Positions 1 to 3,000 of a DNA stretch of 4,475 bases are shown piece by piece. Position numbers: made by a program. Source of the stretch: a virus (lineage: Duplodnaviria > Heunggongvirae > Uroviricota > Caudoviricetes); the IMG/VR virus record IMGVR_UViG_2654587685_000013. One strand, written 5' to 3'. How positions within the stretch are numbered: position 1 is the first letter of the stretch; each line of letters opens with the position of its first letter.

Positions 1-3000
1 CGGGGTATACCGGGTTTATCCTCGCAAACAAGAAATTTATAAGCGCAGTCCTGAGCAGCCGGATAATGTTCCAGGAATTGCCAGTGAAATTTTGCTCGAG
101 CACGGCGTTCGTCGCCAGCTTCAATGGCTGTGGCTACAGCCACAGCGCCTTCTTCCCTTGCTGCCAGCTCGTCAGGAATAGCGGCGCAAATAAAGACTTT
201 ACTCATTTTGTTTTAACCTCATTACAGATTTAAGGGTGAACAAATCCCTGCCATTGCTGGCATATAAAAATGAAACCGGATATTAATTACGGTGCTGTTT
301 TAAGTCCTGCCGGGATTTCGTTATTATCCTGGTGAATAACTTTATCGACCGGATAACAGTTACCGGGAATTTTCTGCTCCACTGCGGCAACCATGCATTC
401 TTTCATTGAGCCGTATACGCCAGTAACCATGTCAACCGGTTCACCGGAAACAAGAAAAACCGTCAGAACAAGTGCAAATGTGATATTCATTGCCAGTATC
501 CTTTTTGCATCAGGCGTAAACGGGCCAGCATTGAAACAATGCATATTTTATCCAATAGCTCCCGTTCGTGTTTTCTCTTGTTAATGGCATCTTCAGTAAA
601 TACAGGGTTACTGATTTTGACACCAATTTCAAAACAACCTTCAGACGTATTAACGTTTGGTAATAACGTTTTCATTATCGCACCCTCAACAATGAATTTT
701 GTGATGCGGTGCCTGGTGCCTCCAGGTGACGTTAACCAGTTAACAATTAACGCCGGATACAGAGCCCCACCCACAACACTGTTTTTGGTTTTAACTGTTC
801 CGCGTGCGCTTAGCCGCATTCACCGCATCACAAAATTCACTTTAAAAAGGACGGCAGAGCAGTCACGGAGTAAAACTGATACCGCCAAACGCCACCAGAA
901 AATTGATAACAGAGGGCGTTGCAGCGGGGTTGTCACTTAAGCGCATGGTCAACCTGACAACCCGGTGTCTCAATGGGGGAGGAATAACCCCGCCATACTT
1001 ACCGCCGCGCCATTTCGCGGAGTGCCACAACCGGAAGCGCACGGTCGACGAAAATTTAACGACAGGCTATCTATGAACCAACTACCTCGCCGTGCGCTTT
1101 CGCGTTATGCCCTGACTTTTCAGGAAAATGCCCTTTCAGCAAACTGTCAGTGCCGGATGCTCACCCGTGTCCGACGCACGCACTCCACCTCACCCGTGGA
1201 GAACCCCTTAATTACCAACCCTCAGGAGGGTGAAATGACTAGTAAAAATGTAAATATCCAGTTTAACCACGATGTTTCTCCTGCTGGACTTGCGGATGAT
1301 CTCACCGCTATAAAAACGGCAATTATGCTACTTGCTGCTAAGTTGCCTGCGTCATCAAAGCCAGCGGAAATTTGTGACTCATTGCGTAAGATGAATTCAA
1401 CAAAATGCAATGAGATGGCATCACTTATTGAAAGTGCAATTGATTTTAATGATTAATCGAAATTTCATGGCTAACTGTAACCCTCCCATCTGTGGCGGGA
1501 TGGTTTAAATCGCTGGGATTAATGCCGCACTCAGTAAAATGGTTCTTAAGGGGGTCTATCCGAATCCCTTTCTTTTTCATTAACAAGCCAAACCCCTTAT
1601 CAATGATGTCCATTAGATCCAGGAAGTATTTTTCATGTAAATCCTGGTTATCAGAGAGCTGCTTCTCTTCGTACAGACCGATAAAGGCACGACGCACGTT
1701 ACCGGATATAGTATCGATGGTTTCTTTTTCTACGGCACTCAGGTCAAGAGTCGCCAGTTGGGAACGAACTATATTCGCTGCCATTTCCTGGAATTGCATT
1801 GGTAAATCTTTAAATTCCATTATTAGCCTCGTTGGTTAGCTATTAACGTGGGTATGTAATCATTCTGGCAATGCTTAATGCCGCTGCTTTTTCCAGCCTG
1901 GTGATATCCTGCTCCAGAGCGGACAGATTTTCAGCCTGCTTAGCCCTGGCTTCATTGGCCCATTTCAGATCCTGCGCTGCATTAATTTTCTGGCGCATCC
2001 ACTCATAAAGTTCATCATCGGTATAGTCTGGCGCGATGATGACGGGTTCTCGTTTCTGCATACTGATTCCTTGCGGTGCTGTTTCCCCTTAACGCCGGGG
2101 TAGCGGAACAAAAACCTGCTGCATAGTTATTAAAGTTGAACCCTGCCGTCATGTTCTTACACCTCGGGCTGGCTACTTACCCCCTGACCACTGCCTGGTA
2201 ACTCGAAGTATTGCCCTGCATTCTGTGGGGCGGGGTGGGTTGGTATGTTGTTAAGGTAACAAGTGTTACCTTTCGAGTCAATGCAATGTTGCAAAAAGTA
2301 CATTTGAGGGCGTGAAAAACCCGCAATGAATGCGGGTTATGACTCAGTCTAAGTATTGATGTATTTGTGAAACTTTACCTTTAATGGTGTAACCACCATT
2401 CAGTTCGATGGGTTTGTAAAGCGGATTCAGTGACAACAGATAGATGTTTGGTCCGTCAATCGCAACTTTTTTTAGTGTTACGTTTGGCGTTCCTTCCAAT
2501 TGGATTAAGATTATTTTTCCCACCAGTTCTCTAATGTTACTTGAGCATGGTGTGATCAGCACGGTAGATCCGTCGGGGATGGTTGGGAGGCCGTTAGAGT
2601 TTGTCATCGCATCTCCCTCAACATGCAATAAAAAAGAGTTTTCAGCGGTTTTTGTCATGACATCAACCCAATTCTTAATACCAGGAATCTCGGTTACTGG
2701 ACAACTCATATCCCAATAACCAGCCTGTTCCCACGTTAAAACGGGCAACCGGGCGATGTTGTCACTAATGTAAAGGTACTGATTCAGACGCAGATCATCG
2801 GTTTTATCGTGACCGTCCTTTCCATAAAGAATCCATTCAGGAGATTTGGAAAGCAATTTTGACAGTAGATGCAAATTCTCACCGTCAGGTTTTGAAGAGC
2901 CATTTTCCCATTTTGTTACGGATACACGAGATATGCCGATTGCTTTCGCAACCTGCTGTTGGGTTAATCCAACGTCTTTTCGACGATTCCGAATACGTTC

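Follow-up and report, generated by a model that had tools for sequence, protein, structure and literature searches.

A conserved structured RNA module at the start of early-left transcripts in Rac- and Qin-like prophages

In lambdoid phages, the early-left transcript can carry a leader RNA element between its promoter and the first gene. In lambda, this element is nutL, which combines a boxA sequence (YGCUCUUWA) with a boxB hairpin and has the Arg-rich protein N as its cognate partner. In HK022, a lambdoid phage without N, the start of the early-left transcript encodes the structured put RNA (putL and putR in HK022, a putL-like element in HK639), which comprises about 70 nucleotides (nt) folded into two stem-loops with a triplex, starts at +1 of the promoter PL and suppresses downstream terminators in cis, an activity that is blocked by mutations in the rpoC zinc-binding domain. 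Rac- and Qin-like prophages reside in most E. coli, with early-left operons that encode inhibitors of cell division (KilR, DicB, DicF), RecET for recombination and exclusion genes, and we know of no explanation for the read-through of these operons without an N protein. Here, we describe a leader RNA module found in a 4475-bp stretch of DNA from a Caudoviricetes virus (IMG/VR record IMGVR_UViG_2654587685_000013), to which we refer as the window. Matches to a repressor with helix-turn-helix (HTH) and S24 domains, to DicF, DicB and YdfD define the window as the immunity region of an E. coli lambdoid prophage together with the start of its leftward operon, which is of the dicBF type. We are confident that the module is a conserved, mobile and structured RNA of early-left transcripts, and it is this module, not the encoded proteins, that is the noteworthy result.

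In leftward direction, the window contains a promoter under the control of a repressor, a leader of ~184 nt, open reading frames (ORFs) of 72 and 124 residues, DicF, DicB and YdfD (Table 1). This organization resembles the Qin prophage of K-12 (ydfA-ydfB-ydfC-dicF-dicB-ydfD), with ydfC, the ydfC-dicF spacer, DicF, dicB and ydfD following each other in the same order on one strand. In a 99% identical locus of E. coli O6:H16, RefSeq lists an exonuclease, DUF1482, DicB, two hypothetical proteins, YdfC, a 'LexA family protein' (the repressor), Cro/CI and YdaT, and the order of ydfC, DicF, DicB and DUF1482 identifies a dicBF-type operon as in Qin, placed behind a different immunity region. The window differs from Qin in its repressor, which is of the LexA/CI type instead of belonging to the DicA/DicC immunity system, in the deletion of the promoter-proximal ydfA and ydfB and in a 620-bp cassette after ydfC. 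A further difference concerns the leader, of which K-12 Qin has retained no more than the last ~35 nt, the 5' 130 nt of the module being absent. The Rac prophage of K-12 carries a full copy immediately downstream of its repressor gene (116.7 bits with the covariance model described below), where it is followed by ydaG-ydaF instead of ydfC, with repressor and operators of the RacR type. In K-12, the racR-ydaG region is without annotated feature. The Rho terminator t_rac is located inside racR (PMC4150792) and was rejected as a counterpart of the leader.

Anatomy and structural conservation of the leader module

The leftward promoter is overlapped by the operator OL, a perfect palindrome (AAGGTAACA/TGTTACCTT), which bears out the proposal of a previous sequence-only reading of the window that a leftward early operon starts at this position. 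The OL half-sites (GTAAC-N4-GTTAC) recur twice in the cI-cro spacer and the same repressor should thus control both sides. Transcription is predicted to start at about 2246-2244. For relatives whose operators are of the HK022 type, homology to HK022 PL allows the start to be positioned. The ensuing leader (~2245 to 2062) had been described as GC-rich, and its G+C content of 53.7% indeed exceeds that of the flanks (38-45%). The C- and G-runs quoted in this context are present, but they merely flank the element, whose informative parts are a hairpin with the fixed apex CAAUACnnnGAGUUA and a block of 36 nt.

The module occupies the first ~100 nt of the leader and begins at about +3 of the predicted transcript. 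It consists of a C-rich tail, an irregular hairpin carrying the fixed apex and, after a short G-rich linker, the near-invariant 36-nt block, which follows the consensus yUAAGUAGCCAGCCyGAGGCrnAnGAACAUGAmGGC and is found in a single copy in the window. The block is near-invariant even in sequences for which the search demanded no more than the apex and TAAGTAG. The words GUAGC and AGCCAG contained in it recall the RfaH-binding ops/JUMPStart element. As ops is defined by a C3:G8 pair, which is not possible in the module, we treat this resemblance as coincidence.

RNAalifold, applied to a plain MAFFT alignment of 30 variants, predicted the hairpin with compensatory changes in 6 of its 13 pairs. 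A covariance model built from this alignment recognized 96 strong copies (57-117 bits) in 100 loci, and in the model-based alignment of 98 copies (40 distinct), which is biased towards the structure by having been fitted to the model, 84% of the cells are paired and double compensatory changes are found in 10 of 14 pairs. The covariation score of the hairpin amounts to 0.47, compared with 0.185 in shuffled alignments (none of 500 reaching 0.47) and values of at most 0.09 if the pairing partners are slid. As an independent check, nine divergent variants were folded singly and all of them adopt the same shape of P1, internal loop, P2 and apex. Outer stems are wholly different between lineages (CCAC/GUGG, CAG/CUG, GGCAGAA/UUCUGCC, GGCAAA/UUUGCC and CGCAU/AUGCG), and inner stems are equally exchanged (GCCGGG/CCCGGC, CACG/CGUG and CUGAG/CUCAG). 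G-U pairs in the hairpin assign the structure to the strand of the leftward transcript. Other predicted pairs, including a block-internal GCC/GGC, a long-range GAAC/GUUC and a CGCY/GGCG preceding the old Shine-Dalgarno (SD) sequence, are invariant or barely covary. The latter belongs to a 3' conserved segment, which is the only part of the leader shared with K-12 Qin and in which covariation of CGCY/GGCG is weak. The signal above chance is thus the conservation and covariation of the 5' 100 nt of the leader, and the suggestion of the sequence-only reading that the leader might be a cis-acting RNA element, to be checked by conservation and covariation among related prophages, is supported across many lineages.

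No match to the module was found in Rfam 15, neither for the window leader (2062-2250, E <= 10) nor for the copies in the loci L009, L010, L012, L163, L164 and L224 (E <= 1), and a literature search with the block sequence returned only unrelated primers.

Distribution and mosaic behaviour

The 100-nt core of the module is found in 3752 of 5426 complete E. coli genomes (69%), with 6760 copies in total and up to 7 copies per genome, all of which fall on regions with no annotated feature. Pattern scans located further copies in genomes of Serratia aquatilis, Superficieibacter electus, Candidatus Arsenophonus triatominarum and E. ruysiae and in more than 200 IMG/VR and metagenome contigs. Altogether, the collected copies encompass 133 distinct sequences, which form about 21 clusters below 90% identity and originate from phages of four host genera (Escherichia, Serratia, Superficieibacter and Arsenophonus). 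At least six unrelated immunity types, including those with RacR-, DicA-, HK022- and LexA/CI-type repressors, precede the module, which begins at the transcription start. In twelve diverse loci, a gene on the same strand, which is repressor-like in all but two, ends 130-280 nt upstream, with a cro-like gene diverging in most of them, and the genes downstream of the module vary between phages.

The module is a mosaic unit. Its boundaries are illustrated by strain B2C, which is near-identical to the window over positions 2083-2240 despite different repressor and operators, with the homology beginning at the predicted transcription start. Downstream of the leader, B2C contains ydfA-ydfB-ydfC, of which the window is missing exactly ydfA-ydfB, with a junction GGGGAAA/CAGCACC at ~2082/2081. 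It is this precise deletion that brings the module next to ydfC. The claim that the two small ORFs are the first of the operon thus applies to the window only as a consequence of the loss of ydfA-ydfB and, for the 124-residue ORF, of an insertion that is lacking in K-12. The same leader follows racR in K-12 Rac, where it is located 5' of ydaG-ydaF, and the repressors of the phages 666R9, 683R6 and pPE4. Two recombinant leaders (L166 1542-1710 and L232 6866-7034) combine a type-A hairpin with a type-B 3' half. In both, the junction lies just before the block, which identifies the module itself as a site of exchange.

Conservation could in principle reflect descent alone, with the leader being a functionless scar of the ydfA-ydfB deletion that was preserved through the recent common ancestry of E. 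coli prophages. Such an origin would suit the 90-99% identity observed for most E. coli copies, the arrangement of the window, which does stem from a deletion, and the ordinary folding energy of the whole leader. It does not account for the ~21 clusters below 90% identity, which retain the hairpin by compensatory changes between unrelated flanks, nor for a block that stays invariant while adjacent sequence is scrambled, and the divergent stems exclude contamination by a single sequence. We consider a lack of function as highly improbable and fortuitous conservation of the module as effectively excluded.

Possible modes of action

As a tentative interpretation, we favour a role in cis, where the module would affect the read-through or processivity of early-left transcription as a functional analogue, not a homologue, of putL. 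Shortly after promoter escape, it would act on the nascent transcript that contains it. A conserved host machine would recognize the hairpin and the invariant stretch, and the elongating RNA polymerase, as for HK022 putL, is the most likely candidate. Early-left transcription, made resistant to premature termination in this way, could then pass through the untranslated leader of ~190 nt and through terminators such as the one of DicF, and reach dicB, ydfD and the exonuclease without N protein. A conserved host machine rather than a phage protein is suggested as recognizing partner by the near-invariance of the module from Escherichia to Arsenophonus in the context of mosaic sequence on both flanks.

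Several observations are consistent with this proposal. The previous claim that the operon would not encode an N-like antiterminator is confirmed insofar as neither of the two small proteins contains an Arg-rich motif, and the same holds for the absence of a nut site from the leader, as three boxA-like sequences with one mismatch are found in the window compared to 3.1 expected by chance, none of them in the leader. Without a boxA/boxB hairpin and an Arg-rich protein in the window, whose element also has a different architecture, membership in the nut/N class was rejected, and its likeness to nutL is confined to being a leader RNA element between the promoter and the first early-left gene. As positive control, boxA/boxB and N-like ORFs were detected in Arsenophonus-type relatives, and neither N nor nut is present in the window or in nearly all E. 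coli-type copies. Like putL, the module is a cis-encoded structured RNA located directly downstream of the early promoter, with conserved apex and junction nucleotides and variable stems, and it fills the putL slot in phages with HK022-type operators. In B2C and 666R9, homology to the HK022 PL promoter and operators extends up to about +1, after which HK022 contains putL and these phages the module. Finally, the terminator of DicF is located between promoter and dicB, and Rac, which contains the module and no N, shows induction of genes spanning several kb. In K-12, relief of repression by RacR raises ydaG, ydaF, kilR, ydaE, racC, ralA and ydaC 40- to 70-fold (PMC11014345).

Other findings weigh against a put-like function. 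With one irregular hairpin and an unpaired-looking stretch of 36 nt, the module differs from the two stem-loops and triplex of put, whose shared sequence (..GAACGGCGCG..UAAACCAUGCGUCGG..GGCGGG.UCAGGA..CGGCAAU..) it does not contain. There is no sequence similarity to putL of HK022 or HK639, which resemble each other and not the module and on which the covariance model scores at chance level, and the assignment to the put class was thus rejected. A second copy serving the rightward operon was not detected in the window. The module is also an optional unit, as lambda and K-12 Qin are devoid of it, and expression of the Qin dicB operon still proved toxic in an experiment where Plac had replaced the native promoter (PMC5069750). 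In Arsenophonus-type phages, the module is located 5' of a leader that can be aligned to lambda, with boxA CGCUCUUUAACA, boxB UCGCUGAAAAAGCGA, UUUGGGGUGUGUGA and CACACACCACCAAA. An N-like Arg-rich ORF containing ...RCRRHERRSAKR... follows this leader, and the module can therefore not be a mere replacement of N. The whole leader is no more stable than shuffled sequence (z = +0.78), so that its GC-richness by itself means nothing. Finally, the presence of a Shine-Dalgarno sequence and an AUG within the invariant block points at the ribosome rather than RNA polymerase.

Latter feature is central to a translational role, which we regard as somewhat doubtful and which follows closely behind the proposed cis effect on read-through. 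Here, the block would be the extended ribosome-binding region of a short leader ORF and the hairpin an operator, standby or stabilizing element. Whether the ORF is translated, or is repressed by a host factor, RNase III or a small RNA, would determine how strongly the first downstream gene is expressed, either through coupling or because the next SD sequence is unmasked, and would indirectly control Rho-dependent polarity. The arrangement GAGG-9 nt-AUG is kept in all but one of the 133 distinct variants, the block covers about -28 to +8 around the AUG and the third codon varies at its wobble position only (GCA, GCG, GCU). In ACCC variants, the ORF stops at a UAA that overlaps the SD sequence of the next gene (UUAAGGGG). 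In ACCCC variants, the ORF shares the reading frame of ydfA, which is preserved across a 3-nt indel. Moreover, the 5' strand of the hairpin could alternatively pair with CCCGGCGUU beside the next SD sequence, with 76% pairing in register compared to ~30% when slid. This alternative pairing shows no compensatory change, though, and Arsenophonus-type copies are without such a downstream segment. The peptide is likewise unconserved: across 131 variants it always starts with M-T/K-A/T and extends over 4-144 codons, and in the two commonest types (MTAVVD and MTAVVVK) the ORF has only 4-7 codons and ends ~55 nt before the next SD sequence. A translational role also leaves the sixteen invariant nucleotides upstream of the SD sequence unexplained.

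A function in trans or in sensing appears unlikely. In such a scenario, the 5' ~100 nt, either released or nascent, would be the first RNA made on infection or induction and sequester, as a sponge or decoy, a conserved RNA-binding protein or RNA of the host, or act as a small ligand-sensing element. It would fit an optional and self-contained module that can be inserted 5' of an otherwise lambda-like nutL/N leader and that is the very first sequence to be transcribed. In addition, the long invariant stretch of single-stranded appearance resembles a seed or binding surface, and recognition elements typically show such a conserved apex on variable stems. Conversely, no terminator or evident processing site follows the block, and Rfam contains no matching riboswitch or small RNA. 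Searches for partners also count against this possibility: pairing of the leader with DicF and KilS was no better than with shuffled sequences, no conserved antisense target was found within 3.5 kb downstream, complementarity of the block to 16S, 23S and 5S ribosomal RNA did not exceed chance, and inspection for a loop-block pseudoknot revealed no conserved complementarity.

Considered together, the module may represent a new class of leader RNA, unlike put and nut in sequence and fold, that would bind host RNA polymerase or the ribosome once transcribed and control processive, N-independent early-left expression in Rac- and Qin-like prophages, a possibility that we advance with caution. By its location at the transcript start and its presence in 69% of complete E. 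coli genomes, combined with its absence from Rfam and annotation, it is a concrete candidate for the missing control element. If true, recognition by a host machine would bear on operons with the toxic kil, dicB and dicF genes and recET in most E. coli including K-12, and even if its role were translational or trans-acting, the module would be a new and abundant RNA motif in the best-studied bacterium, with a copy in K-12 Rac.

Genes and RNA elements surrounding the module

Table 1. Positions of features in the window (ORF, open reading frame; aa, amino acids)
Feature	Position	Strand	Evidence or remarks
ydfD/DUF1482	287-490	-	Pfam PF07358, 3.8e-23
dicB	487-675	-	Pfam PF05358, 1.4e-37
DicF small RNA with terminator	849-900	-	Rfam RF00039, 70.8 bits, E = 9.6e-15
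73-aa ORF, convergent (phrog_7249)	1235-1456	+	ORF call; strong Shine-Dalgarno sequence GGAGGG
124-aa hypothetical protein (phrog_6937)	1446-1820	-	ORF call; N-terminal ~55 aa are a shared module
ydfC, 72 aa	1843-2061	-	RefSeq 'protein YdfC' WP_001171946; phrog_1744, 1.9e-39
Leader ORF from block AUG	2015-2152	-	45 codons in the window; enters ydfC out of frame
3' conserved segment GUUCCGCUACCCCGGCGUUAAGGGGAAA	2082-2109	-	Small GC hairpin and orphaned Shine-Dalgarno sequence of the missing ydfA/ydaG
Near-invariant 36-nt block GUAAGUAGCCAGCCCGAGGUGUAAGAACAUGACGGC	2145-2180	-	GAGG 2165-2162, AUG 2152-2150
Conserved irregular hairpin, ~41 nt	2188-2228	-	RNAalifold on MAFFT alignment; covariance-model alignment
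Hairpin P1	2228-2225 with 2191-2188	-	Followed by purine-rich 5' internal loop AGAAU
Hairpin P2	2220-2214 with 2198-2192	-	Central mismatch tolerated
Hairpin apex CAAUACUUCGAGUUA	2213-2199	-	Pattern CAAUAC-nnn-GAGUUA; AAU/GUU can pair
C/A-rich, G-poor 5' tail AUACCAACCCACCCCGCC	2229-2246	-	Cross-immunity homology begins here; C/A-rich in all types
Early-left promoter	2253-2281	-	-35 TTGACT 2281-2276, 17-nt spacer, -10 TACCTT 2258-2253
Operator OL	2253-2272		Perfect palindrome; half-sites at 2255-2270
Operator half-sites in cI-cro spacer	3019-3032, 3067-3080		GTAAC-N4-GTTAC
Intrinsic terminator of repressor gene	2310-2338	-	AACCCGCA-5 nt-TGCGGGTT then TTTTT; inverted repeat 2318-2325/2331-2338, T-run from sequence
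Immunity repressor, HTH and S24 peptidase (LexA/CI type)	2344-3018	-	Pfam Peptidase_S24 9.4e-17, HTH_3 2e-16
YdaT-family protein at CII position	3322-3747	+	PF06254, 6.8e-10

The two small ORFs that had been placed after the leader are both present and preceded by plausible ribosome-binding sites (AAGGAA 7 nt 5' of the ATG for the 72-residue ORF, GAGG 6 nt 5' of the ATG for the 124-residue ORF). The assertion that neither could be assigned to a family, with homology searches and structure prediction named as check, stands for the longer protein only. The shorter one is YdfC, the third gene of the classical Qin dicBF operon. Clusters that carry the name 'protein YdfC' share 97% identity with it, and its 114 homologues all originate from Escherichia. 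It shows the 72-residue length and the near-invariant N-terminus MQKREPVIIAPDYTDDE followed by a long helix. An AlphaFold2 model based on 21 sequences accordingly displays an extended N-terminus and a single helix encompassing residues 15-69, with a predicted local distance difference test (pLDDT) score of 88.7, and a profile of the family matched only GCN4-type coiled coils among PDB sequences (E ~1e-3).

For the 124-residue protein, we found 239 homologues, essentially all from Escherichia and all annotated as 'hypothetical'. Its first ~55 residues (MEFKDLP...VRRAFIGLYEEK) are elsewhere joined to alternative C-termini (phrog_1363, 2151 and 9419). AlphaFold2 predicts a three-helix arrangement of low confidence (pLDDT 61.6), for which Foldseek retrieved no significant match in BFVD or PDB, and no match of the protein was found in Pfam, NCBIfam, PADLOC or with PDB sequence profiles. 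The ORF faces the convergent 73-residue ORF, with 3' ends overlapping by 11 nt, and both are contained in an insertion of 620 bp relative to K-12 Qin (1216-1842), next to a normal ydfC-dicF spacer (845-1215) that is 92% identical to K-12. With no match to a family or defence system for the pair (PADLOC included), the insertion looks like a moron-like cassette. For the 72- and 124-residue proteins, the functions in host takeover or anti-defence that the sequence-only reading had considered are purely speculative, since no Pfam, NCBIfam, PADLOC, PDB or fold match points to such a role. Both are ordinary prophage proteins, which add little by themselves.

On its plus strand, the window encodes a P22-type Cro (P22_Cro), a YdaT/CII-like protein and an O-like replication protein. 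A YdaT-family protein is likewise found at the CII position in Rac, B2C and pPE4, all of which contain the leader module, a co-occurrence that may simply reflect shared lineage.

Among 239 copies of the module, 10 have a boxA-like site within 400 nt. In two E. coli-type cases that were checked, these sites are located in the region upstream of dicF and no Arg-rich ORF follows. In L089 and L027, a perfect rrn-type boxA (TGCTCTTTAACAA) is found 323 nt after the block, upstream of dicF and without a subsequent Arg-rich ORF. Four other loci (L163, L165, L169 and L196) contain an Arg-rich ORF of 42-50 residues (e.g. MINQQQLRRAQRLAGKAVRQRSSKKWDAANR...), located 100-450 nt after the element as first or third ORF downstream, which, by its sequence, could be a miniature N-like peptide. 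The Arsenophonus-type contigs L184 (1-4800), L214, L176 and L170 show two tandem immunity modules on one strand, in each of which a cro-like gene and a repressor are joined by the leader element, boxA/boxB and an Arg-rich N-like ORF.

Additional matches to known RNAs were observed outside of the leader. The DicF-dicB spacer of the window (659-851, minus strand) contains a sub-threshold match to the Rfam family STnc100 (38.6 bits compared to a gathering score of 47), and the KilS-kilR spacer of Rac, which occupies the equivalent place (L009 1723-1909, minus strand), matches the same family with 28 bits. In an Arsenophonus prophage (L012 1446-2148), four transfer RNA genes are followed by matches to isrK-like and C4 antisense RNA (62.8 and 62.3 bits). 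In L163 (1243-1386), genes of the small RNAs SraC/RyeA and SdsR/RyeB (138 and 105 bits) adjoin the prophage and probably mark its integration site.

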